Shown in pieces: positions 3,492 through 15,134 of a stretch of 15,510 nt of DNA. Within the stretch, counting starts at the first letter, position 1. Each line of letters opens with the position of its first letter. Source of the stretch: a virus (lineage: Duplodnaviria > Heunggongvirae > Uroviricota > Caudoviricetes); IMG/VR virus record IMGVR_UViG_2585427727_000013. One strand, written 5' to 3'. A model generated the notes under the pieces. That model was given only the letters and a program-made list of their open reading frames with translations. It was not told where the DNA came from and made no database searches. The translations under genes were made by a program, and so were the position numbers.

Positions 3492-6400
3492 ATGGGTAAA
3501 GGAAGCAGTAAGGGGCATACCCCGCGCGAAGCGAAGGACAACCTGAAGTCCACGCAGTTGCTGAGTGTGATCGATGCCATCAGCGAAGGGCCGGTTGAAG
3601 GTCCGGTGGATGGATTAAAAAGCGTGCTGCTGAACAGTACGCCGGTGCTGGACACTGAGGGGAATACCAACATCTCCGGTGTCACGGTGGTGTTCCGTGC
3701 CGGTGAGCAGGAGCAGACACCGCCGGAGGGGTTTGAATCCTCCGGCTCCGAGACGGTGCTGGGTACGGAAGTGAAATATGACACGCCGATCACCCGCACC
3801 ATTACGTCTGCAAACATCGACCGTCTGCGCTTTACCTTCGGTGTACAGGCACTGGTGGAAACCACCTCAAAGGGTGACAGGAATCCGTCGGAAGTCCGTC
3901 TGCTGGTTCAGATACAACGTAACGGTGGCTGGGTGACGGAAAAAGACATCACCATTAAGGGCAAAACCACCTCGCAGTATCTGGCCTCGGTGGTGGTGGG
4001 TAGCCTGCCGCCGCGCCCGTTTAATATCCGGATGCGCAGGATGACGCCGGACAGCACCACAGACCAGCTGCAGAACAAAACGCTCTGGTCGTCATACACC
4101 GAAATCATCGATGTGAAACAGGGCTACCCGAACACGGCACTGGTCGGCGTGCAGGTGGATTCGGAGCAGTTCGGCAGCCAGCAGGTGAGCCGTAATTATC
4201 ATCTGCGCGGGCGCATTCTGCAGGTGCCGTCGAACTATAACCCGCAGACGCGGCAATACAGCGGTATCTGGGACGGAACGTTTAAACCGGCATACAGCAA
4301 CAACATGGCCTGGTGTCTGTGGGATATGCTGACCCATCCGCGCTACGGCATGGGGAAACGTCTTGGTGCGGCGGATGTGGACAAATGGGCGCTGTATGTC
4401 ATCGGCCAGTATTGCGATCAGTCAGTGCCGGATGGCTTTGGTGGCACGGAGCCGCGCATCACCTGTAATGCCTGGCTGACCACACAGCGTAAGGCGTGGG
4501 ATGTTCTCAGTGATTTCTGCTCGGCGATGCGCTGTATGCCGGTATGGAACGGGCAGACGCTGACGTTCGTGCAGGACCGGCCGTCGGATAAGGTGTGGAC
4601 CTATAACCGCAGTAATGTGGTGATGCCGGATGATGGCGCGCCGTTCCGCTACAGTTTCAGCGCCCTGAAGGACCGCCATAATGCCGTTGAGGTGAACTGG
4701 ACTGACCCGGATAACGGCTGGGAAACGGCAACAGAGCTTGTGGAGGACACGCAGGCCATTGCCCGTTATGGTCGTAATGTCACGAAGATGGATGCCTTTG
4801 GCTGTACCAGCCGGGGGCAGGCACACCGCGCCGGGCTGTGGCTGATTAAAACGGAGCTGCTGGAAACGCAGACCGTGGACTTCAGCGTGGGCGCAGAAGG
4901 GCTTCGCCATGTACCGGGCGATGTTATTGAAATCTGTGATGATGACTATGCCGGTATCAGCACCGGTGGTCGTGTGCTGGCGGTGAGCAGCCAGACCCGG
5001 ACGCTGACGCTCGACCGTGAAATCACGCTGCCATCCTCTGGCACCACGCTGATAAGCCTGGTTGACGGAAGTGGCAATCCGGTCAGCGTGCAGGTCCAGT
5101 CCGTCACCGACGGCGTGAAGGTGAAAGTGAGCCGGGTTCCTGACGGCGTTGCAGAATACAGCGTGTGGGGGCTGAAGTTGCCGACGTTGCGCCAGCGCCT
5201 GTTCCGCTGTGTGAGTATCCGTGAGAACGACGACGGCACGTATGCCATCACCGCCGTGCAGCATGTACCGGAAAAAGAAGCCATCGTGGATAACGGGGCG
5301 CACTTTGACGGCGACCAGAGTGGCACGGTGAATGGTGTCACGCCGCCAGCGGTGCAGCACCTGGCCGCAGAAGTCACTGCAGACAGCGGGGAATATCAGG
5401 TGCTGGCGCGATGGGACACACCGAAGGTGGTGAAGGGCGTGAGCTTCCTGCTCCGTCTGACCGTAACAGCGGACGACGGCAGTGAGCTGCTGGTCAGCAC
5501 GGCCCGGACGACGGAAACCACATACCGCTTCAGGCAACTGGCGCTGGGGCGTTACACGCTGACGGTCCGGGCGGTAAATGCGTGGGGGCAGCAGGGCGAT
5601 CCGGCATCGGTATCGTTCCGGATTGCGGCACCGGCAGCGCCTGTCACTATTGAACTGATACCAGGGTATTTTCAGATAACAGCGGTCCCGAAACTGGCTG
5701 TATATGACCCGACGGTGCAGTTTGAGTTCTGGTTCTCGGAAAAGCGGATTATCGATATCAGGCAGGTTGAAACCAGCGCGCGTTATCTTGGTACGGCGCT
5801 GTACTGGATAGCCGCCAGTAGCAATATTAAGCCGGGTTATGATTATTACTTTTATATCCGCAGCGTGAACACCGTTGGTAAATCGGCATTTGTGGAGGCC
5901 GTTGGTCGGGCGAGCGATGATGCGGAAGGTTATCTGAATTTTTATAAAGGGTTGATCAATAAAACGCATCTCGGCAAGGAACTGCTGGAAAACTTTGAGC
6001 TGACGGAAGATAACGCCAGCAAACTGGAGGAGTTTTCGAAAGAGTGGAAGGACGCCAACGATAAATGGAATGCCATGTGGGGCGTCAAAATTGAGCAGAC
6101 CAAAGACGGCAAACATTATGTCGCGGGGCTTGGCCTCAGCATGGAGGATACGGAGGAAGGCAAACTGAGCCAGTTCCTGGTTGCCGCTAACCGTATCGCG
6201 TTTATTGACCCGGCAAACGGGAATGAAACGCCGATGTTTGTGGCGCAGGGCAACCAGATATTCATGAACGACGTGTTCCTGAAGCGCCTGACGGCCCCCA
6301 CCATTACCAGCGGCGGTAATCCTCCGGCATTTTCCCTGACACCGGACGGGCGGCTGACGGCGAAAAATGCCGATATCAGCGGTAACGTGAATGCGAACTC

Positions 6401-6887
6401 CGGGACGCTCAACAACGTCACGATTAACGAGAACTGCCGGGTTCTGGGAAAACTGTCCGCGAACCAGATTGAAGGCGATCTCGTTAAAACAGTGGGCAAA
6501 GCTTTCCCCCGTGACTCCCGGGCACCGGAGCGGTGGCCATCAGGGACCATTACCGTCAGGGTTTATGACGATCAGCCGTTTGACCGGCAAATTGTTATTC
6601 CGGCTGTGGCATTCAGTGGCGCTAAGCATGAGAGAGAGCATACTGATATTTACTCCTCATGCCGTCTGATAGTGCGGAAAAACGGTGCTGAAATTTATAA
6701 CCGTACCGCGCTGGATAATACGCTGATTTACAGTGGCGTTATTGATATGCCTGCCGGTCACGGTCACATGACACTGGAGTTTTCGGTGTCAGCATGGCTG
6801 GTAAATGGCTGGTATCCCACAGCAAGTATCAGCGATTTGCTGGTTGTTGTGATGAAGAAAGCCACTGCAGGCATCACGATTAGCTGA
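3492..6887 (+). CDS. J: Tail tip central fibre / host specificity protein J (lambda gpJ-like, 1131 aa)
   Basis: 1131-aa ORF (lambda J is 1132 aa) in the conserved position after I. Good SD (tgaggaatg). N-terminus [34 protein letters not shown] is lambda-J-like. Confidence 0.95.
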
Positions 6888-6954: not shown

Positions 6955-7554
6955 ATGCGTAAATTATGTGCTGTTATTCTGTCCGCAGTAGTCTGGCTGG
7001 TTGCCGCTGGTACGCCAGCGAGCGCAGCAGAGCATCAGTCCACACTAAGCGCCGGGTATCTTCAGACTCATACTGATATGCCAGGCAGTGATGACCTGAA
7101 GGGCATTAACGTGAAATACCGTTATGAATTTACGGACACGCTGGGGCTGGTGACGTCATTCAGTTATGCCAATGCCAAAGATGAGCAAAAAACGCATTAC
7201 AGCGATACCCGCTGGCATGAAGATTCAGTGCGTAACCGCTGGTTCAGCATGATGGCGGGGCCATCTGTACGCGTGAATGAATGGTTCAGTGCTTATGCGA
7301 TGGCAGGTGTGGCTTACAGCCGTGTTTCGACGTTCTCCGGGGATTATCTCCGCGTAACTGACAACAAGGGGAAAACGCACGATGTGCTGACCGGAAGTGA
7401 TGACGATCGCCACAGCAACACGTCTCTGGCGTGGGGAGCTGGCGTGCAGTTTAACCCGACCGAATCCGTGGCCATTGATATTGCTTATGAAGGCTCCGGC
7501 AGTGGCGACTGGCGCACTGACGGTTTCATCGTGGGTGTCGGTTATAAGTTCTGA
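6955..7554 (+). CDS. lom: Lom-like outer-membrane beta-barrel protein (Ail/Lom/PagC family)
   Basis: 199 aa with signal peptide (MRKLCAVILSAVVWLVAAGTPASAAEH), alternating amphipathic beta-strand pattern and C-terminal GVGYKF. Lambda moron position between J and stf, bracketed by terminators. Confidence 0.9.
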   Translation: MRKLCAVILSAVVWLVAAGTPASAAEHQSTLSAGYLQTHTDMPGSDDLKGINVKYRYEFTDTLGLVTSFSYANAKDEQKTHYSDTRWHEDSVRNRWFSMMAGPSVRVNEWFSAYAMAGVAYSRVSTFSGDYLRVTDNKGKTHDVLTGSDDDRHSNTSLAWGAGVQFNPTESVAIDIAYEGSGSGDWRTDGFIVGVGYKF

Positions 7555-7608: not shown

Positions 7609-7618
7609 TGGAGTGGAT

Positions 7619-9997
7619 ATGGCAGCAGTAAAAATCTCAGGTGTGCTGAAAGATGGTGCGGGAAAACCAATACAGAACTGCACTATTCAACTGAAGGCAA
7701 AGCGTAACAGCACCACGGTACTGGTGAACACGGTGGCCTCTGAAAATCCGGATGAAGCCGGGCGTTACAGCATGGACGTTGAGTATGGTCAGTACAGCGT
7801 CATCCTGTGGATTGAGGGTTCTCAGCCATCACATGTTGGGACCATTACCGTCTATGAAGGTTCCAGTCCGGGGACGCTGAATGATTTTCTCGGTGCCATG
7901 ACGGAAGATGATGTCATGCCGGAGGCATTGCGCCGTTTTCAGGCAATGGTGGAAGAAGCGGCACGCAACGCCGAAGCCGCCTCTCAGAGCGCAGCGGCGG
8001 CAAAGAAATCCGAAACTGCAGCGGCATCATCGAAGAACGCGGCGAAAACCTCAGAAACGAATGCAGCTAATAGTGCACAGGCGGCAGCGACCTCAAAGAC
8101 TGCATCGGCAAACTCCGCGACAGCAGCCAAAAAATCAGAAACCAACGCGAAAAATAGCGAGACAGCCGCAAAGACGAGCGAAACCAACGCAAAGTCCAGC
8201 CAGACGGCAGCGAAAACCAGCGAAACGAATACCAAAGCCAGTGAAACTGCGGCGAAAAACAGCCAGGATGCAGCGGCCCAAAGCGAGAGTGCCGCAGCTG
8301 GTTCTGCAAGTGCGGCGGCTTCTTCTGCCACTGCATCAGCCAACAGTCAAAAAGCTGCAAAAACCAGCGAAACTAACGCAAAGTCCAGCCAGACGGCAGC
8401 GAAGACCAGCGAAACGAATGCCAAAGCCAGCGAAACTGCGGCGAAAAACAGTCAGGATGCAGCAGCCCAAAGCGAGAGTGCTGCAGCTGGTTCTGCAAGC
8501 GCGGCGGCTGCTTCTGCCACTGCATCAGCCAACAGTCAAAAAGCAGCAAAAACCAGTGAAACCAATGCAAAGACAAGCGAGACTGCAGCGGCGAACTCGG
8601 CGAAAGCATCGGCAGCAAGCCAGACAGCAGCTAAAGCAAGTGAAGACGCAGCCAGAGAGTATGCAAGTCAGGCAGCAGAGCCGTATAAATATGTCTTACA
8701 GCCACTGCCTGATGTGTGGATACCATTTAACGATTCACTGGATATGATTACGGGCTTTTCGCCATCTTATAAAAAGATTGTTATTGGTGACGACGAAATA
8801 ACGATGCCTGGTGACAAGGTGGTTAAGTTTAAACGCGCATCAAAAGCAACTTACATTAATAAATCTGGTGTGCTGACAGAGGCTACCATTGACGAGCCAC
8901 GATTTGAACGTGATGGCCTGCTTATTGAGGGGCAAAGAACGAACTTCTTCCCGAACAGTACAGACCCTTCGAAGTGGAATAAGTCAACTTCACTGGACGT
9001 TACAGAAACAGGCACAGATAGTTTCGGTTTTAATTATGGCCGGTTTGTCGTACAGGATTCGATTGTTGGTACAAGTAAAGCGCATACCATTATCGGACTG
9101 TATTCGAGTACCGGAGGGGTTGATACTTCAGGGGACGAAAAGTATGTAACTATATCCTGTCGGGTAAAAAGTGAAGTTGATAATATCGACGTTCGTATTT
9201 TATTTGAACATTATGATGGGGAGGTAAGGACATCAATAGGAACAGCAAGCCTGAACCTTACCACCCGCATAATTAGCAAGACAGGTCAGACAAGCCGTGT
9301 TACAGCAAGGTCTGTTAAGGATGATGCAACTGGCTGGATATTTTTTGAGGCTACATTAAAAGCAGATACAACAGAAAATACGGTTGGTGGTTTCGTCCAG
9401 TATTCTCCGGATACAGGTCAGATGGTGGCATCAGGGGATTGTCTCGATGTAACCACTCCCCAGATTGAGGCTGGTACAGGCGCATCATCTTTTATTGTTA
9501 CGGGGGCTGCACCGGTAACGCGGGCAAGCGATATAGTTACAGTCCCAATTAAGAATAATCTTTATAATCTACCTTTTACGGTTCTTTGTGAGGTACATAA
9601 GAACTGGTATAAAACGCCAAATGCAGCACCGCGTGTTTTTGATACCGGCGGTCATCAAACCGGAGCGGCTATTATTCTTGGCTTCGGTTCTTCAGCAGAT
9701 TACGACGGATTTCCTTATTGCGATATTGGTGGGGCTAACAGGCGGATAAACGAAAATGCATCGCTTGAAAAAATGGTTATGGGGATGCGTGTAAAGTCAG
9801 ATCAGTCTACATGCGCAGTAAGTAACGGGCGTATATCCAGCGAAACAAAAACCACATGGTCCTGTATTCAGAACTCCGCAATTATCCGTATTGGAGGCCA
9901 GACTACAGCCGGTTTACGCCATTTATTTGGTCATGTCAGGAATTTCAGAATATGGCACAAGGCATTGACTGATGCTCAGGTGGGGGAGTTAATCTAA
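7619..9997 (+). CDS. stf: Side tail fibre protein, mosaic: lambda-Stf-like N-terminus, Ala/Ser/Thr/Lys-rich repeat shaft, and a non-lambda AT-rich C-terminal module ending in a LamG/concanavalin-like motif
   Basis: The track ORF starts at GTG 7613, but the ATG at 7619 has an SD (ggag, 5-nt spacer) and gives MAAVKISGVLKDG..., matching the lambda Stf N-terminus. Shaft carries SETNAK-type short repeats and a 63-aa tandem duplication. C-terminus ...RIGGQTTAGLRHLFGHVRNFRIWHKALTDAQVGELI resembles the end of LamG-type domains. Confidence 0.85.
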   Translation: MAAVKISGVLKDGAGKPIQNCTIQLKAKRNSTTVLVNTVASENPDEAGRYSMDVEYGQYSVILWIEGSQPSHVGTITVYEGSSPGTLNDFLGAMTEDDVMPEALRRFQAMVEEAARNAEAASQSAAAAKKSETAAASSKNAAKTSETNAANSAQAAATSKTASANSATAAKKSETNAKNSETAAKTSETNAKSSQTAAKTSETNTKASETAAKNSQDAAAQSESAAAGSASAAASSATASANSQKAAKTSETNAKSSQTAAKTSETNAKASETAAKNSQDAAAQSESAAAGSASAAAASATASANSQKAAKTSETNAKTSETAAANSAKASAASQTAAKASEDAAREYASQAAEPYKYVLQPLPDVWIPFNDSLDMITGFSPSYKKIVIGDDEITMPGDKVVKFKRASKATYINKSGVLTEATIDEPRFERDGLLIEGQRTNFFPNSTDPSKWNKSTSLDVTETGTDSFGFNYGRFVVQDSIVGTSKAHTIIGLYSSTGGVDTSGDEKYVTISCRVKSEVDNIDVRILFEHYDGEVRTSIGTASLNLTTRIISKTGQTSRVTARSVKDDATGWIFFEATLKADTTENTVGGFVQYSPDTGQMVASGDCLDVTTPQIEAGTGASSFIVTGAAPVTRASDIVTVPIKNNLYNLPFTVLCEVHKNWYKTPNAAPRVFDTGGHQTGAAIILGFGSSADYDGFPYCDIGGANRRINENASLEKMVMGMRVKSDQSTCAVSNGRISSETKTTWSCIQNSAIIRIGGQTTAGLRHLFGHVRNFRIWHKALTDAQVGELI
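8189..8566 (+). repeat. In-frame tandem duplication inside stf: 2 x 189 bp (63 aa), near-identical
   Basis: Unit starting gcaaagtccagccagacggcagcg occurs at 8189 and again at 8378 with only a few substitutions. It explains the spurious Arg/Lys/Gln-rich ORFs in other frames. Confidence 0.9.
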
Positions 9998-10278
9998 TGA
10001 AAGATTTAACACTCAAATTTGTCGACAGGGCCGACTTTTCGGCCTTTATGGAGAGCATTGGCTATTATGATGACGAGTCGATGCAGGATGATATTCTTAT
10101 TGACGTGATAGGTAATGTGTACAAAGAAACCGGAGAACTTACTGAAGATGGCGAGCCGGTATGTGTTAAGGAGGACGGATATTTTGTAAGCGTGCGCATC
10201 ATTAATGATGCAAAAAAATCGTCAATATTCGATAAATACGCGATTGTTGTTGAGCATCAACTTCGTGGCTGGATGTGA
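9997..10278 (+). CDS. Hypothetical acidic 93-aa protein, translationally coupled to stf
   Basis: Start ATG overlaps the stf stop (TAATG). AT-rich. No motif I can recognise. Confidence 0.5.
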   Translation: MKDLTLKFVDRADFSAFMESIGYYDDESMQDDILIDVIGNVYKETGELTEDGEPVCVKEDGYFVSVRIINDAKKSSIFDKYAIVVEHQLRGWM

Positions 10279-10287
10279 GGGAGACAA

Positions 10288-10992
10288 ATGGCTACATCGA
10301 CAGTAATTCCTGATGACATCAAAACGCTAAAGGGAGATGTCAGTAAAGCCAAGGAAGATATTTCCTCAATTAACGGAAAAGTATCAACGCTTCAGACTGA
10401 TATGACCAGTGCAAAGCAGGATATCAGCTCCAGATACACAAAAACTGAAGTTGATAATAAGCTGAAAAACAAACTGGAAGTGAACGCTCTGGAAAGCGGT
10501 CGTTATGGTGGAGATTTTTACCCGCTGACTGGCCGTGAAGCGTTTTATTTGTGGGGATTGGGCACGACTACAGCGGCGGCAAACCTTTATCTTAATCCTG
10601 ACTCCGCAATTTCGTCTGTACTGCGGTCAACATCGTCTATCCGCTATAAAGATTCAGTAGAGACAATAGATTCAGAGCACGCCGATCTCATTTTCAGGAT
10701 GCGCCCTGTGTGGTACAGGTCGCAATGCGAAAATGACAGGCGTGACTGGGGATTCTACGGATTGATTGCCGAGGAAGTAGGAGAAATTGCCCCTCAGTTT
10801 GTACACTGGCGACCAGCTAACGAGAATGATGCTCCTGAAGCTATTTCCAGCAATGGCCTTGTTGCCGAAGGTGTAATGTACGAACGTCTGGTTGTTCCAC
10901 TGATTCACCATATCCAGAAACTGACTGAAAGAGTTGATGAACTTGAGTCAGAATTAAAGCTGTTATCAACTTCCCGAAGCGATATCGGATAA
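10288..10992 (+). CDS. Short fibre-like protein with a C-terminal peptidase-S74 intramolecular chaperone domain (234 aa)
   Basis: SD gagggag upstream. N-terminal heptad-like repeats (DIKTLKGDVSKAKEDISSINGKVSTLQTDMTSAKQDISS). C-terminal half matches the S74 pattern as I recall it: S-S-I-R-Y-K at the expected autocleavage site, then RPVWYR, GLIAEEVGEIAPQFV, and a terminal coiled coil (IQKLTERVDELESELKLL). Confidence 0.6.
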   Translation: MATSTVIPDDIKTLKGDVSKAKEDISSINGKVSTLQTDMTSAKQDISSRYTKTEVDNKLKNKLEVNALESGRYGGDFYPLTGREAFYLWGLGTTTAAANLYLNPDSAISSVLRSTSSIRYKDSVETIDSEHADLIFRMRPVWYRSQCENDRRDWGFYGLIAEEVGEIAPQFVHWRPANENDAPEAISSNGLVAEGVMYERLVVPLIHHIQKLTERVDELESELKLLSTSRSDIG

Positions 10993-11002
10993 AGGAGGAG
11001 TA

Positions 11003-11296
11003 ATGGATATAAGCCCCTTACTTCATGCACTTTGTGCTGTGGCTGCGCAGACACTGGTTGGTCTTTTTACCGGAAACTGGGCTTACGGAGCGATAGCCGG
11101 TTGTGCGTTCTTCATTGCGCGTGAACACACCCAGGCAGAATATCGCTGGATTGAAATGTTCGGGCATGGCAAGCGAATGAATATGCCGTGGTGGGGCGGT
11201 TTTGATCCGCGCGCGTGGGATGTGGCAAGCCTGATGGATTTTGCTGTGCCGGTGGTGGCGTGTCTGCTGGTCTGGCTGTTGGTTAATCGTGGGTGA
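11003..11296 (+). CDS. Hypothetical small membrane protein (97 aa, hydrophobic N- and C-terminal segments)
   Basis: Strong SD (aggagg). Hydrophobic stretches LLHALCAVAAQTLVGLFTGNWAYGAIAGCAFFIA and FAVPVVACLLVWLLV. Third gene of the compact cassette after stf. Confidence 0.5.
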   Translation: MDISPLLHALCAVAAQTLVGLFTGNWAYGAIAGCAFFIAREHTQAEYRWIEMFGHGKRMNMPWWGGFDPRAWDVASLMDFAVPVVACLLVWLLVNRG

Positions 11297-11306
11297 AAAA
11301 AGGTGA

Positions 11307-11435
11307 GCTGTATATGCAACGGAGGAAGAAACCTCGTTGCGGGAAGCCTGGAAGAAGTATCGGGTGTTGCTGAACCGTGTTGATACATCAACTGCACCTG
11401 ATATTGAGCGGCCTGTGAACCCTGTCAGGGAGTAA
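11307..11435 (+). pseudogene. tfa: 3' remnant of a tail fibre assembly gene (tfa): last ~40 codons only, no start
   Basis: Frame translates ...[39 protein letters not shown], matching the lambda Tfa C-terminus (...[24 protein letters not shown]...) from memory. An in-frame stop lies immediately upstream at 11304-11306. Confidence 0.6.
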
Positions 11436-11486: not shown

Positions 11487-11498
11487 ATGCTATTTTTT
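11450..11498 (+). terminator. Perfect 11-bp-stem hairpin with downstream T-run after the tfa remnant; possible terminator for the stf operon
   Basis: ccgcagcacgt-cttaagcaaga-acgtgctgcgg (11450-11482), then tttttt at 11493-11498. A degenerate copy lies inside repeat 2 near 12507-12536. Confidence 0.45.
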
Positions 11499-12158
11499 CC
11501 CTGAAGCGGAAAACATTACTACAGTACCTTGAACCTTGGTTTTAACATTCTCGAAATGCTCTGAGAGTATATGTGTTAAGCCTTCTTCGGAATCTTTTGT
11601 GTTTGAAAAGATGCCTTTCTGATTGTAAATGCGCATCAGTTTTTGACCGAAGCTATTGTGCACAACTCCATCGCCAAGAATTGTGGCTCCGTATAGAGTT
11701 CCATCGTCAGTTAAGGCCTGCGCCGCATTGCGTATTACACAGCTTTTTGTAGATATATTTCCAGGCAGGCAGTGAAGAAGGTAAAACATGGAAATGGAAT
11801 CAAATTGACCATGTAACGTCGCGGGATAAGGTTCAAAAACATCATGGCTAATTTTATGTTTAATTTTTGATTCCCCAGCCCTTGTAGATGCCGCGTTCAG
11901 GCTAGCTTCGTTCAAATCCATTAAAGATATCAGACTACTCTCAGGTACGTGAGTAAGGTAAAACCCAGTTCCAACACCAATATCCAGATGGTTGTTACCT
12001 AAATGTTCCAGAAAGTGTGGAAGAAGGTGTTCCTTTGTAGGACATCCCCATGCAAGCCGATTTGATACTCCCAAAACCCACCAGTCATAAAGCTTTAGGG
12101 TAAGTGGTGTGTAAATTTTAGCCCCATCATCTGTGTTTTTTTTCATTAATTTCACCAT
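11490..12158 (-). CDS. Class I SAM-dependent methyltransferase (moron), substrate unknown
   Basis: 222-aa ORF on the minus strand with SAM-binding motif I (LDIGVGTGFY) and an acidic post-motif region. Low GC relative to tail genes. An SD-supported alternative start is the fifth codon (ATG at 12146). Confidence 0.7.
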   Translation of the reverse strand: MVKLMKKNTDDGAKIYTPLTLKLYDWWVLGVSNRLAWGCPTKEHLLPHFLEHLGNNHLDIGVGTGFYLTHVPESSLISLMDLNEASLNAASTRAGESKIKHKISHDVFEPYPATLHGQFDSISMFYLLHCLPGNISTKSCVIRNAAQALTDDGTLYGATILGDGVVHNSFGQKLMRIYNQKGIFSNTKDSEEGLTHILSEHFENVKTKVQGTVVMFSASGKK

Positions 12159-12214: not shown

Positions 12215-12484
12215 ATGCTGCCGCAGCATAGCGATATTGAAATAGCCTGGTATGCTTCGATACAGCAGGAGCCGAATGGCTGGAAGACCGTCACCACACA
12301 GTTCTACATCCAGGAATTCAGTGAGCATATTGTGCCACTTCAGGATGCTGTAGATCTGGAGATCGCAACGGAGGAAGAAAACTCGTTGCTGGAAGCCTAG
12401 AGGAAGTATCGGGTGTTGCTGAACCGTGTTGATACATCAACTGCACCTGATATTGAGTGGCCTGCAAATCCTGTCAGGGAGTAA
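12215..12484 (+). pseudogene. tfa: 5'-truncated tfa fragment with an in-frame TAG (TGG to TAG) at 12398-12400
   Basis: Track ORF 12215..12400 ends ...SEHIVPLQDAVDLEIATEEENSLLEA*. The same frame continues [27 protein letters not shown] to 12484, matching the lambda Tfa C-terminus with W replaced by a stop. No Tfa N-terminal region is present. Confidence 0.65.
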
Positions 12485-12600: not shown

Positions 12601-12849
12601 TTAGTGAACAAACCACTCGTCAGCAGACTCCCAGGTATCTTTCAGAGTTTCCTGAACAAAAGTTTTAGCTGAATCTTTATCGGCGGTGCGCGTAACAGAA
12701 AGGCCATCGTTGCTGGTGGCTTTTACGATCACCTCTACATCGTCATAACGTTTACTGATGCGTCGGGTTAATTCTTCCTTTAACGCATCCACAGCACCGG
12801 TTGGCATTTTAGTCATTTTTTCTTTGGCTATGCAGATTTCAATACGCAT
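12601..12849 (-). CDS. dinI: DinI-like DNA-damage-inducible protein (82 aa)
   Basis: [11 protein letters not shown]...[11 protein letters not shown] has the DinI-family pattern (MRIE..IAK...GA.DAL..EL.RRI...TWESAD.WFV) as I recall it for E. coli DinI. SD agaggga. Two LexA boxes immediately upstream. Confidence 0.8.
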
Positions 12850-12910: not shown

Positions 12911-14008
12911 TCAAGAGGTCTTATTTCTGCTCTTTTGGAGCTCTTCAAAACGATTATGTAAAGATTTCGGATACAGTTCGGTATATACCTGCCATAGCAC
13001 GTTTAATGAACGATGTCCTGTAACTTGGGCGACTTCCTCAATACTAAAACCAGCCTCAAATAAGCGACTTGCCCCTTCTCTACGCAAATCATGGTATCGC
13101 AGATCTTTAATACCTAATTTGCTTCTTACCCTCTGAAATCCCGCAGTAACAGAAGTGCTGTTATATGGAAAAATGAATTCCGATTTTTGGGGCTGTCGTT
13201 GGACGATATCCCAGGCTTCCCCAAGCAAGGCTACTTTCATGTGGTTGCCTTCCTTTTTGCGTGGATCTTTCCTGTCTCTTACGAGTATAGATTTTTGTTC
13301 CTGGTCGAGATCTTCCCATCGTAACCGGCATACTTCTCCGATTCGCATACAGGACCACACAGAAAATTTGAGGATATCAACGAACGGAATTTTTGAGCAT
13401 TTATGAGTAGATCGTTGTTGAAGGCCTTCAATGAGCATGTCCAGTTCATCAGATGCTGGTCTACGATTACGACGGTTTGATTTACCAATCAAACCAAGTT
13501 TAAGTAGATATGGACGAGCGCTTTTCGCCGGGTTTGATGTGTAATTAATTCCGTATACAGGTTTAGCCGCATCCAGAACACTGCCAAGATAACTAACATC
13601 GTGGCTGACTGTTGCTGGACCTGCACCAGCGTTGTTTCTTAGCCTACAATGTTCAATTACGTCATTTTCTGTCAGTTCGGATAGTTTGATCGCGGAGATG
13701 TCACTATCCATAAGCAGTTCCAGCACATATCTTTTAGTACGACCTGCTTTACCTCCGGCATTTGAGTCATTTAAATATTTGTGTAGTAAGTCACGGACTG
13801 TAAGTCCGTCAACTGCATTTGATGATGGAATGCCATATAGATCTAATTCCATTACTTTCTGTGTACCCCATGTTTTGGCATGGGCATGTTTAGGGAATGT
13901 TTTGCTTTCCCTGTAAGTGATAACACCTTTTTCTTTGATAATCACATTACAGCGATAGCGTGGTGTGCCATCGGATTTTAGTCGTTTCTCTATGTTATAG
14001 TACGCCAT
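12911..14008 (-). CDS. int: Tyrosine-type site-specific integrase (dusA-associated integrase type)
   Basis: 365 aa with a C-terminal catalytic region carrying an HxxR box (RYHDLRREGASRLF) and ...VTGHRSLNVLWQVYTELY with the candidate nucleophile Tyr. 5' end is 88 bp from the dusA start, divergently oriented. Confidence 0.9.
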   Translation of the reverse strand: MAYYNIEKRLKSDGTPRYRCNVIIKEKGVITYRESKTFPKHAHAKTWGTQKVMELDLYGIPSSNAVDGLTVRDLLHKYLNDSNAGGKAGRTKRYVLELLMDSDISAIKLSELTENDVIEHCRLRNNAGAGPATVSHDVSYLGSVLDAAKPVYGINYTSNPAKSARPYLLKLGLIGKSNRRNRRPASDELDMLIEGLQQRSTHKCSKIPFVDILKFSVWSCMRIGEVCRLRWEDLDQEQKSILVRDRKDPRKKEGNHMKVALLGEAWDIVQRQPQKSEFIFPYNSTSVTAGFQRVRSKLGIKDLRYHDLRREGASRLFEAGFSIEEVAQVTGHRSLNVLWQVYTELYPKSLHNRFEELQKSRNKTS

Positions 14009-14096: not shown

Positions 14097-15134
14097 ATGC
14101 ACGATAATCCTGAAACACAGAAAACTAATCAAACCAGCGTGATGCCTGAGAAAACTGACGCTTACGGGAGCTCTCGGTTTAGCATTGCTCCTATGCTCGA
14201 CTGGACGGACAGACATTGCCGCTATTTCTTGCGTCTGCTTTCCCGCAATACGTTGCTGTATACCGAAATGGTGACCACAGGGGCGATTATTCACGGTAAA
14301 GGTGATTATCTGGCGTACAGTGAAGAAGAACATCCGGTAGCGTTGCAACTCGGCGGTAGCGATCCGGCGGCGCTGGCGCAGTGTGCGAAGCTGGCAGAAG
14401 CGCGCGGATATGATGAGATCAACCTGAATGTCGGCTGCCCGTCTGACCGGGTGCAGAACGGCATGTTTGGGGCGTGTCTGATGGGTAATGCGCAGCTGGT
14501 TGCCGACTGCGTGAAAGCGATGCGCGATGTGGTGTCGATTCCGGTGACGGTGAAAACGCGTATTGGAATCGATGACCAGGACAGCTATGAATTTCTCTGC
14601 GATTTCATCAACACCGTTTCCGGCAAAGGCGAGTGTGAGATGTTCATCATCCACGCACGTAAAGCCTGGCTTTCTGGGTTAAGCCCGAAAGAAAACCGTG
14701 AAATCCCGCCGCTCGATTATCCGCGTGTGTATCAACTGAAGCGTGACTTTCCGCATCTGACGATGTCGATTAACGGTGGCATCAAGTCGCTGGAAGAGGC
14801 TAAAGCGCATTTGCAACATATGGATGGCGTGATGGTCGGGCGCGAAGCGTATCAGAATCCAGGCATTCTGGCGGCGGTAGACCGAGAGATCTTTGGTTCT
14901 TCGGATACCGATGCCGATCCGGTGGCGGTGGTGCGTGCCATGTATCCGTACATTGAGCGTGAACTCAGCCAGGGGACGTATCTCGGCCATATTACCCGGC
15001 ATATGCTGGGCTTGTTCCAGGGTATTCCTGGCGCGCGGCAGTGGCGGCGTTATTTAAGTGAAAATGCCCATAAAGCGGGTGCTGACATTAACGTGCTGGA
15101 ACACGCGCTCAAACTGGTGGCAGATAAGCGTTAA
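14097..15134 (+). CDS. dusA: tRNA-dihydrouridine synthase A
   Basis: 345-aa Dus-family protein with the catalytic-Cys motif ([21 protein letters not shown]). Followed by pspG, as in the E. coli chromosome. Confidence 0.9.

Follow-up and report, generated by a model that had tools for sequence, protein, structure and literature searches.

The window analysed here is a stretch of 15,510 nucleotides of a tailed virus (Caudoviricetes; IMG/VR record IMGVR_UViG_2585427727_000013). Its plus strand carries a fibre locus in which a proximal side tail fibre gene (stf), a 93-aa gene, and a gene for a protein with a peptidase S74 domain (the S74 gene) follow one another in the same orientation, with gaps of -1 and 9 nt. 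No terminator-like site was found between stf and the S74 gene. The preliminary description of this DNA had placed the S74 gene just downstream of stf, but the conserved 93-aa gene lies between the two. The features of the locus are listed below.

7619-9997, plus strand: stf, encoding the proximal side tail fibre, with 792 aa if the annotated ATG is taken as start (Pfam PF08400, E=9e-64; RefSeq CDS; full-length match to phrog_1419)
8699-9994, plus strand: C-terminal module of Stf, referred to as StfC (NCBIfam NF048003, E=6e-19; PDB 6tb9, Rcc01080, E=8e-6)
9997-10278, plus strand: 93-aa gene (phrog_1361, E=7e-45), whose start overlaps the stf stop (ATGA)
10288-10992, plus strand: S74 gene, 234 aa
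10288-10344, plus strand: N-terminal anchor, residues 1-19 (MATSTVIPDDIKTLKGDVS), common to the 294-, 343-351-, 388-, and 574-576-aa alleles (column conservation 0.87)
10312-10467, plus strand: coiled-coil stalk, residues about 9-60 (AF2 helices, a/d residues, indel lengths)
10501-10635, plus strand: distal tip, residues about 72-116, non-helical (homology to the segment immediately before the cleavage site in long S74 fibres; AF2)
10633-10635 to 10648-10650, plus strand: predicted autocleavage site and dyad, Ser116 to Lys121 (alignment to MyRF ICA and DT57C LtfA, invariance, motif census)
10636-10989, plus strand: intramolecular chaperone (peptidase S74) domain, residues 117-234 (PF13884, AF2, Foldseek)
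11003-11296, plus strand: 97-aa predicted two-TM membrane protein (PHROG match, phrog_1443; the homologue in phage 21 carries an annotation of 2 TMDs)

The proximal fibre and its companion genes

Stf has a phage_tail_N N-terminus followed by a shaft of Ala/Ser/Thr-rich repeats; the list of open reading frames puts the start of the gene at a GTG at 7613. As had been noticed from the sequence, Stf (7619-9997) carries no S74 domain detectable by Pfam. Its C-terminal module, StfC, is comprised, in order, of a highly conserved junction (QPLPDVWIPFNDSLDMITGF...), a GTA head-spike-fibre-like domain, and a galectin/LamG-like end (...HLFGHVRNFRIWHK). StfC is conserved across lambdoid, Nonagvirus, Drexlerviridae, and T5-like phages as well as phage 21, and is presumed to be the docking partner of a distal subunit.

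The 93-aa gene is a constant companion of the StfC module. Homologues of its product were detected by tblastn in 179 phage records, adjoining an annotated tail-fibre gene in nearly all of the 60 matches listed. The protein has no sequence match in Pfam, NCBIfam, or the PDB, and its AF2 model (pLDDT 57.6, with a shallow input alignment whose sequences are over 80% identical) gave nothing below E=1 in Foldseek. The order stf, 93-aa gene, S74 gene recurs in 11 phage or prophage loci belonging to four phage groups. On the 3′ side, the gene for the 97-aa membrane protein closes the operon in the lambdoid versions and stands behind both allele types in IMG/VR loci; it is taken as context only and need not belong to the fibre. 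A tfa-like sequence at 11316-11435 is a separate pseudogene fragment, and such tfa fragments in the neighbourhood point to past recombination.

A short protein ending in an S74 intramolecular chaperone domain

The open reading frame at 10288-10992 (plus strand) begins with ATG, ends with a stop codon at 10990-10992, and encodes 234 aa. A Shine-Dalgarno sequence, GAGGGAG, can be read at 10277-10283 (plus strand), with a 4-nt spacer to the ATG at 10288, which agrees with the earlier view of a gene driven by its own ribosome-binding site. In the source genome, RefSeq annotates an identical CDS, WP_032239070.1, as a "tail fiber domain-containing protein".

The 234-aa protein ends in a bona fide S74 intramolecular chaperone (IMC) domain with a Ser116/Lys121 dyad. 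Residues 116-172 align with positions 1-57 of the 58 in the profile PF13884 (Peptidase_S74) at E=5.2e-6, and the 27.1 bits of this match exceed the gathering score of 22. When the protein was compared with PDB sequences by phmmer, the best match was the IMC end of DT57C LtfA (8hqz_d, E=8.5e-6), and the ICA domain of MyRF (7dc3) was also found (E=0.011). In the AF2 monomer, residues 125-232 are modelled at pLDDT about 75-90 and include a C-terminal helix (198-232). A Foldseek search of the PDB with this model returned MyRF ICA 7dc3 at the top (E=3e-5, prob 1.0), and then the IMCs of GA-1 gp12 (3gud, prob 0.89) and endoNF (3gw6). These approaches agree with one another and bear out the C-terminal S74 domain of the preliminary description. 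S74 was the sole domain found in the Pfam and NCBIfam scans, which yielded no match to a tail-fibre-assembly family (Tfa/gp38-type).

With regard to the cleavage site, the phmmer alignment to MyRF ICA and DT57C LtfA puts Ser116 at the position of the nucleophile and Lys121 at that of the general base. The Ser of SSIRYK, already named as the predicted nucleophile, is therefore the residue that aligns with the MyRF/LtfA site; Ser116, Ser117, and Lys121 are invariant among 26 homologues whose identity goes down to 30%. The motif R-S-T-S-S-x-R-Y-K is kept in 36 of 37 distinct anchor-bearing open reading frames of 215-270 aa, the sole exception being a truncated 346-type allele. By homology, the chain is expected to be cut after Ser116, and the calculated products per chain would be a part of 116 aa (12.5 kDa) and a chaperone of 118 aa (13.6 kDa), in keeping with the very small product that had been foreseen. 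On the other hand, the rarity implied for such an arrangement does not hold, as short proteins with an S74 domain at the C-terminal end are common.

The part upstream of the cleavage site is more varied than the stretch of about 115 residues of heptad repeat described before. Its first ~19 residues, beginning with MATSTVIPDDIKTLK..., form the anchor. The a/d register is unbroken only between I11 and I46 (I,L,V,A,I,I,V,L,M,A,I), AF2 predicts helices at residues 9-47 and 52-60, and residues about 61-116 are non-helical in the model. Length differences in the stalk among relatives are mostly multiples of 7, arising from indels of 7, 14, and 21 aa, which suggests that the stalk is under structural selection. 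The mature part has no recognisable receptor-binding head and only about 45 non-helical residues, and the AF2 monomer falls below pLDDT 50 between residues 55 and 115.

The sequence from about residue 50 on has its homologue in long fibres, namely their distal end ahead of the cleavage site. In a lambdoid Stf of 958 aa, the same tip and chaperone cassette stands in cis at the end, with 58% identity to residues 50-234; this may point to the origin of the cassette. The tip is presumed to be the substrate of the chaperone domain. Its column conservation is 0.84 and it is unusually conserved between the lambdoid and Drexlerviridae versions; since this is far above what is usual for receptor-binding tips, a structural role fits as well as an adhesin.

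Distribution, alleles, and proposed role

The gene is intact, under selection, and widely conserved in prophages. An identical or near-identical intact open reading frame occurs in 720 of 5426 complete Escherichia coli genomes (about 13%), where a genome was counted if the match extended over at least 80% of a 1.5-kb region. It is also intact in the Qin remnant of BL21. Among isolated lambdoid phages, IdasGreatGrand (PP925829), PhiR49_1 (PV340568), and PhiR55_1 carry the gene, and a homologue of about 57% identity is present in about 40 lytic Drexlerviridae. PeterMerian (MZ501101) is another phage with the allele. The dN/dS ratio was 0.17-0.40, covering both halves of the gene, and ratios of 0.2-0.3 indicate purifying selection at the sequence level. 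Truncated short alleles are found once among about 60 in IMG/VR.

The same anchor is present on alleles of 227-269, 294, 343-351, 388, and 574-576 aa. The larger ones that occupy the same slot include those of HannyBb (343 aa), ESCO3 (351 aa), JenP2 (348 aa), PhiR47_1 (294 aa), VogelGryff (388 aa), EC100 (576 aa), and IrisVonRoten (Gp24, 574 aa), and an S74 end is present in all seven. Matches to the anchor pattern in IMG/VR lie downstream of an StfC match in 119 of 120 cases, the exception being a contig end, and an open reading frame of 89-93 aa ends just upstream of 130 of the 131 anchor-bearing frames examined (named phage loci included). The variant of the anchor (MATST vs MVTKT) is perfectly associated with the type of the upstream small frame and not with the body of the protein; with the genes about 10 nt apart, this association could be mere physical linkage.

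The slot can also be empty: phage 21 and many lambda-like isolates possess the Stf module and the 93-aa gene and lack the S74 gene. In addition, the short allele pairs with StfC variants that are 34-96% identical to the StfC of the window, and the 346-aa allele pairs with variants over the same range, which argues against cognate pairing.

Taken together, the gene probably represents the smallest allele for a second, distal subunit that is optional in a multi-part side or lateral tail fibre, and its product is most likely the shortest known version of this optional piece. The subunit would be built from the anchor, a five-heptad coiled coil, a tip of ~45 aa, and a self-cleaving chaperone domain. 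Between a separate fibre tip and an orphaned fibre end, left side by side in the preliminary description, the former is favoured, for the anchor is shared with larger distal-fibre alleles and always stands behind the same StfC and small gene.

Trimerisation, cleavage, docking, and incorporation into the virion are all postulated in this scheme. Briefly, three chains would be joined both by the C-terminal chaperone domain and by the five-heptad coiled coil, and the chaperone domain would template the ~45-residue beta-rich tip (residues 72-116). Ser116/Lys121 would then cut after Ser116, freeing the 13.6-kDa chaperone fragment and leaving a trimer of 12.5-kDa chains. Through its N-terminal anchor, this stub may dock where the Stf trimer ends, probably at the highly conserved junction of StfC and possibly with the 93-aa protein. 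Once docked, the stub would prolong the fibre axis by ~10 nm (a rough estimate), past the laterally protruding galectin-like domains, and its well-conserved tip may touch a conserved surface structure or merely end the fibre.

It is also conceivable, although unlikely, that the protein stays outside the virion as a trans-acting chaperone or transient cap that helps to fold, or caps, the upstream Stf. The mature part is tiny and without an obvious receptor-binding head, homologues in Drexlerviridae and Seuratvirus are labelled "putative lateral tail fiber chaperone" in BASEL and another homologue annotation reads "chaperone of endosialidase", and stand-alone IMC-like chaperones are encoded after the fibre gene in the Alteromonas phages V22 and A5 (PMC10579305). 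However, these labels appear to come from the name of the Pfam domain, and the 388-aa allele is labelled likewise. A trans chaperone needs neither its own cleavage dyad nor its own pre-cleavage fibre segment, whereas the 234-aa protein keeps both, and Stf ends in a globular galectin/LamG-like domain rather than in an IMC-templated triple beta-helix. Because viable phages (phage 21 and many lambda-like isolates) keep StfC and the 93-aa gene without the S74 gene, and because both alleles reassort freely with Stf variants across the 34-96% range, a chaperone dedicated to Stf was down-weighted.

A non-adhesive allele that is processed and attached without binding a receptor, and that fills or stabilises the docking site at the Stf end, has a similarly small chance of being correct, and it is equally doubtful that Stf's galectin-like domain and J are thereby left with host recognition. 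Neither Pfam nor AF2 reveals a recognisable receptor-binding domain, the tip is unusually conserved between lambdoid and Drexlerviridae versions, and a slot that can be empty or hold large receptor-binding alleles makes a minimal filler conceivable. Yet homologues of the tip form the outermost distal end of full-length Stf proteins, the place where binding is expected, the N-terminal half is under purifying selection, and the gene is kept in compact lytic genomes; none of these points is decisive. There is likewise little probability that the short allele is a terminator or cap whose IMC assembly and self-cleavage open or seal the docking site, or that Stf is acted on in trans, either by the released IMC fragment of 13.6 kDa or by the uncleaved protein. 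If true, a cap or trans role would mean a regulatory or chaperoning use of S74 outside classic cis fibre maturation.

A functionless, decaying 3′ end of a longer fibre gene, left by a frameshift, deletion, or recombination scar, is very improbable: the 58% identity to the 958-aa Stf C-terminus, the tfa pseudogene fragments nearby, and a best PHROG match that falls at the end of a fibre profile with 1385 columns speak for it, but the protein has its own Shine-Dalgarno sequence, conserved ATG start, and conserved N-terminal anchor, occurs intact in hundreds of genomes as well as in free phages from at least two families, with a dN/dS of 0.2-0.3, keeps its dyad invariant, and has stalk indels that preserve the heptad register. 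A frameshift or pseudogene origin, which the preliminary description had named as the finding that would count against a gene in its own right, is effectively refuted by the stand-alone form in many independent prophages and free phages. Of the capture of an orphaned C-terminus by recombination, also suggested there, the evolutionary history stands, whereas the functionless relic does not.

If the gene does encode the optional distal subunit, the side fibres of many lambdoid prophages and the lateral fibres of T1-like, 9g-like, and T5-like phages would draw on one set of parts: a proximal fibre whose end is galectin-like, a small protein of 89-93 aa, and an optional distal subunit plugged in via the ~19-residue anchor. 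The gene would then be the minimal plug-in, with one coiled coil, one tip, and one chaperone in 26 kDa, and a handy scaffold to study or engineer the docking interface and IMC-assisted folding. This reading also corrects the frequent annotations "chaperone of endosialidase" and "lateral tail fiber chaperone", probably borrowed from the Pfam domain name. About one in eight complete E. coli genomes carries the module, as does BL21. S74 chaperones, branched or multi-part fibres, and exchangeable receptor-binding modules are all already known and no new kind of biology is involved; what is unusual about this otherwise ordinary phage part is its small size.

Comparison with known systems

The 234-aa protein shares the Pfam family, the Ser-x4-Lys dyad, and the C-terminal position of the domain with the endosialidase of K1F (endoNF), T5 pb1, GA-1 gp12, and MyRF ICA. 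In classic S74/IMC proteins, the mature part ranges from several hundred residues to over a thousand, whereas here it has 116. The residue after the nucleophile also differs, being Ser rather than the usual Asp (SSIRYK vs SDxRxK). A literature search found nothing on a lateral tail fiber chaperone, a stand-alone peptidase S74, or S74 side tail fibres. The 559-aa S74 fibre in a virion proteomics paper on the T1-like phage SH6 belongs to a different family.

In the Alteromonas phages, V22 gp27 and A5 gp9 resemble the 234-aa protein in being separate proteins of IMC-like fold encoded downstream of a fibre gene (PMC10579305). However, they act on another polypeptide and no fibre segment of their own is described, while the 234-aa protein combines a cleavage site with a fibre segment of its own and varies independently of the upstream fibre.

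Docking through a short peptide is known from KP32, K11, and KP34, podophages of Klebsiella, in which, according to PMC13352976, a short conserved N-terminal peptide docks a second receptor-binding protein on the branching domain of the first, with exchangeable bodies. These proteins are podovirus tailspike depolymerases. The likeness is functional only.

A second fibre protein that is encoded after the first and attaches through it is also found in the branched L-shaped fibres of DT57C and DT571/2, where LtfA and LtfB both carry C-terminal PF13884 autocleaving chaperone domains (PMC4728585, PMC10713586). On the other hand, the anchor of LtfB is phiEco32 gp15-like, the proximal LtfA has its own IMC, and no 93-aa gene is described. 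LtfB was rejected as a homologue of the anchor, given that the match between DT571/2 and the EC100 fibre does not begin until residue 27, past the anchor.

The T5-like phage IrisVonRoten (Bas32) has the same gene order with homologous parts, Gp22, Gp23, and Gp24 corresponding to stf, the 93-aa gene, and the S74 gene. Gp22 and Stf have the C-terminal module in common (54% identity across 756 aligned columns), Gp23 has 93 aa and is homologous to the 93-aa protein (36% identity), and Gp24 has the same anchor at its start (MVTKTVIPTDITKLK) and an S74 chaperone domain at its end. The C-terminal domain of Gp22 was described as galectin-like, and the distal T-shaped Gp24 was modelled by AlphaFold-Multimer as attached to the proximal Gp22 in a study that does not discuss short alleles (PMC11990801). 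Gp24 differs in its length of 574 aa and in its two receptor-binding domains, one Gp12-like and one T5-like, a body that the 234-aa protein lacks. By analogy with this homologous locus and its attached distal fibre, the 234-aa protein may be attached to Stf in the same manner.

Gene order around the S74 gene

The window corresponds to the right arm of a lambdoid E. coli prophage inserted beside dusA and is 100% identical in strain 10035776-3. Insertion took place at the 5′ end of dusA, which is a known integration hotspot.

Features of the window, in order
3492-6887, +: J, last of the tail genes
6955-7554, +: lom
7619-9997, +: stf
9997-10278, +: 93-aa gene (phrog_1361), overlapping the stf stop
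10288-10992, +: S74 gene, 234 aa
11003-11296, +: 97-aa membrane-protein gene (phrog_1443), two transmembrane segments predicted
11316-11435, +: tfa pseudogene fragment 1 (annotation of the identical RefSeq record)
11490-12158, −: class I SAM methyltransferase
12308-12484, +: tfa pseudogene fragment 2 (annotation of the identical RefSeq record)
12601-12849, −: DinI-like gene (dinI), adjoining the integrase
12911-14008, −: tyrosine integrase, immediately upstream of dusA
14097-15134, +: dusA, followed by pspG (+)

The preliminary description had placed the S74 gene just downstream of stf, which needs amending, as the 93-aa gene lies in between. Terminator-like hairpins are found 3′ of J and of lom, and lambda likewise has terminators after these two genes. 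Since no terminator-like site was found between stf and the 97-aa gene, and the spacing between the stf, 93-aa, S74, and 97-aa genes is −1, 9, and 10 nt, these four genes look co-transcribed. The 97-aa gene closes the stf operon in lambdoid versions, comes after short (227-269-aa) as well as 346-aa alleles of the S74 gene, lies directly 3′ of the 93-aa homologue in phage 21, and is lacking in the loci inspected from Drexlerviridae, Nonagvirus, and T5-like phages; its product could have a moron or exclusion function. The two tfa fragments lie on either side of the reverse-strand methyltransferase gene, and tfa genes matching the first are present in most E. coli genomes; both fragments are probably left over from an earlier module of the stf-tfa type that was replaced through recombination.

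Homologues of the 93-aa gene were detected by tblastn in 179 phage records from lambdoid, Drexlerviridae, Dhillonvirus, Queuovirinae, T5-like, and rV5-like (myovirus) phages, and abut an annotated tail-fibre gene in nearly all matches listed. Its product had no match in Pfam, NCBIfam, or PDB sequences, its AF2 model was of low confidence, and a Foldseek search gave no fold assignment; adaptor, chaperone, and structural cap are candidate roles.

The C-terminal module of Stf (StfC; window 8699-9994, +; ~430 residues), the presumed docking partner of a distal subunit, resembles the RcGTA head-spike fibre (NF048003, E = 6e-19; Rhodobacter GTA head-spike fibre Rcc01080, PDB 6tb9, E = 8e-6) and ends in a LamG/galectin-like motif. 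It starts with an almost invariant junction, QPLPDVWIPFNDSLDMITGF...EGQRTN, common to the fibres of lambdoid phages, phage 21, Nonagvirus ESCO3, Drexlerviridae PeterMerian, and T5-like EC100; the first ~85 residues are almost invariant across phage families and the remainder varies. Stf residues about 105-350 (window 7900-8700, +) form an Ala/Ser/Thr-rich shaft with internal duplications (AAKTSETNAKSSQTAAKTSETNAKASETAAKNSQDAAAQSESAAAGSA... is present twice), which creates spurious long ORFs, out of frame as well as on the complementary strand. In the alignment, the shafts of relatives differ by whole-block insertions and deletions.

Architecture and origin of the S74 protein

The S74 gene has a Shine-Dalgarno sequence (GAGGGAG) 4 nt 5′ of its ATG. 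The S74 domain first proposed from inspection is correct: PF13884 (Peptidase_S74) significantly matched residues 116-172 (E = 5.2e-6), its 27.1 bits exceeding the curated cut-off of 22. Among PDB sequences, the best matches were LtfA, the lateral fibre of DT57C, at its chaperone end (8hqz_d, E = 8.5e-6), and the ICA domain of MyRF (7dc3); in these alignments, Ser116 coincides with the nucleophile and Lys121 with the general base. Ser116, Ser117, and Lys121 never vary among 26 homologues with identity down to 30%, and the motif is kept in 36 of 37 distinct 215-270-aa ORFs from viral contigs that bear the anchor (the first ~19 residues of the protein), the sole exception being a truncated 346-type allele. 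Residues 125-232 of the AF2 monomer are confidently modelled (pLDDT about 75-90), with a predicted fold like those of MyRF ICA (top Foldseek match, E = 3e-5, prob 1.0) and the GA-1 gp12 (3gud) and endoNF (3gw6) chaperones. The ~115 residues of heptad repeat described initially have to be shortened: the register is continuous only over I11-I46, AF2 places helices at residues 9-47 and 52-60, and residues about 61-116 are non-helical, residues 55-115 being poorly modelled in the monomer.

Over residues 50-234, the protein shares 58% identity with the end of a lambdoid Stf of 958 aa (phage_tail_N, fibre repeat, and S74), the last ~45 residues being almost identical. An exhaustive HMMER search yielded 3677 cluster representatives matching roughly residues 85-226 (1625 at E ≤ 1e-10); the matched part forms the C-terminus of these proteins, whose lengths range from about 180 to about 1280 aa. 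To judge from these representatives and the Stf end, the tip and chaperone unit is a mobile cassette; its short carriers are not rare, contrary to what had been implied, as many of the matched proteins are just 200-300 aa long. The S74 gene occurs widely, and existing annotation already covers its domain.

Alleles in the slot after the 93-aa gene

This slot is empty in phage 21, and a comparison of tblastn lists revealed that the S74 gene is missing from many lambda-like isolates carrying the 93-aa gene. Otherwise, it may hold the 227-269-aa family, a 294-351-aa family (HannyBb, ESCO3, JenP2, PhiR46_1, PhiR47_1, and PhiR11_1), an allele of 388 aa (VogelGryff), or one of 574-576 aa (T5-like EC100 and IrisVonRoten). 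The anchor, M-(A/V)-T-x-T-(V/I)-I-P-x-D-I-x-x-L-K, is common to all of these, and each complete allele that was inspected has an S74-type domain at its end (PF13884 was confirmed in three); the 294-aa allele of PhiR47_1 stops inside this domain.

A degenerate DNA pattern for the anchor retrieved at least 120 loci from IMG/VR. A StfC match lies upstream in 119 of the 120 anchor matches listed (the exception is at a contig end), and an 89-93-aa ORF ends just upstream of 130 of the 131 anchor ORFs examined, which comprise IMG/VR and named phage loci. Among the matches listed, the dominant bodies (the exchangeable remainder of the allele) are the short family (about 60 loci) and the 346-aa family (about 54). 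Five listed alleles are truncated (L031, L038, L049, L106, and L121, with 90, 90, 194, 157, and 189 aa); one belongs to the short type and the other four to the 346-aa type, indicating that occasional decay of the slot does occur. The StfC partners of the short allele are 34-96% identical to that of the window, and the same range applies to the 346-aa allele; thus, there is no cognate pairing with the fibre end.

Anchor residues 2-5 (window 10288-10302) co-vary with the type of upstream ORF, whichever body follows (IMG/VR L014-L133). The MATST variant accompanies the 93-aa type (105/105) and MVTKT an 89-aa or another type (24/24), the 89-aa type being only 34% identical to the 93-aa type. Since the anchor variant tracks the upstream small gene, not the body, recombination falls between anchor and body. 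Such co-variation fits a docking interface, and could also be simple linkage with a recombination breakpoint after the anchor.

Proposed role and related fibre systems

The best interpretation of the S74 gene is as a minimal representative of an already known class, namely distal subunits of multi-part tail fibres that undergo maturation by an S74 chaperone. In the mechanism that we consider reasonably probable, three chains would associate via the C-terminal chaperone domain and the coiled coil, the ~45-residue tip would be folded by the chaperone, Ser116/Lys121 would cut after Ser116 to free a 13.6-kDa fragment from the remaining 12.5-kDa chains, and the anchor would dock this stub onto the end of the Stf trimer. 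Action as a chaperone or cap in trans has a precedent in Alteromonas phages (PMC10579305), but is unlikely here because the gene is dispensable, its alleles reassort, and the protein retains a cleavage site and a fibre segment. The unusually conserved tip is compatible with a non-adhesive terminator of the fibre, a role to which we likewise assign a low probability.

Of 5426 complete E. coli genomes, 720 cover at least 80% of the 1.5-kb region with the 93-aa, S74, and 97-aa genes; they include that of BL21(DE3), in whose Qin remnant the S74 ORF is intact despite IS3 cutting the upstream fibre gene. The same 234-aa ORF occurs in the isolated lambdoid phages IdasGreatGrand, PhiR49_1, and PhiR55_1, and about 40 lytic Drexlerviridae genomes carry 221-269-aa homologues (about 57% identical). 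Pairwise dN/dS among three lambdoid alleles is 0.17-0.40, both in the N-terminal 116 residues and in the chaperone half, and stalk lengths differ mostly by 7, 14, or 21 residues, so that the heptad register is maintained. Given these intact ORFs, dN/dS values, and register-preserving indels, the ORF does not owe its existence to a frameshift missing from relatives, as had been considered; it is a genuine gene rather than a disrupted fibre end, and a functionless relic is highly improbable. In BL21 Star(DE3) (NZ_CM137359.1, 4170-7397), all three genes are intact, with 94% DNA identity to the window.

A literature search found no paper discussing the short alleles. Their database labels, "chaperone of endosialidase" and "putative lateral tail fiber chaperone", appear to be derived from the Pfam domain name, as the 388-aa allele bears the same label. 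The same locus as in the window is present in IrisVonRoten (Bas32), whose Gp22 shares 54% identity with Stf across the aligned region and whose Gp23 is 36% identical to the 93-aa protein, while Gp24, like the S74 protein, combines the anchor with an S74 end. In the model published by the BASEL authors, Gp24 forms a T-shaped distal fibre joined to Gp22; the latter is the proximal fibre, from which a galectin-like domain projects at the C-terminus (PMC11990801). In DT57C, branched fibres with two S74-bearing subunits, LtfA and LtfB, have been established genetically (PMC4728585, PMC10713586).
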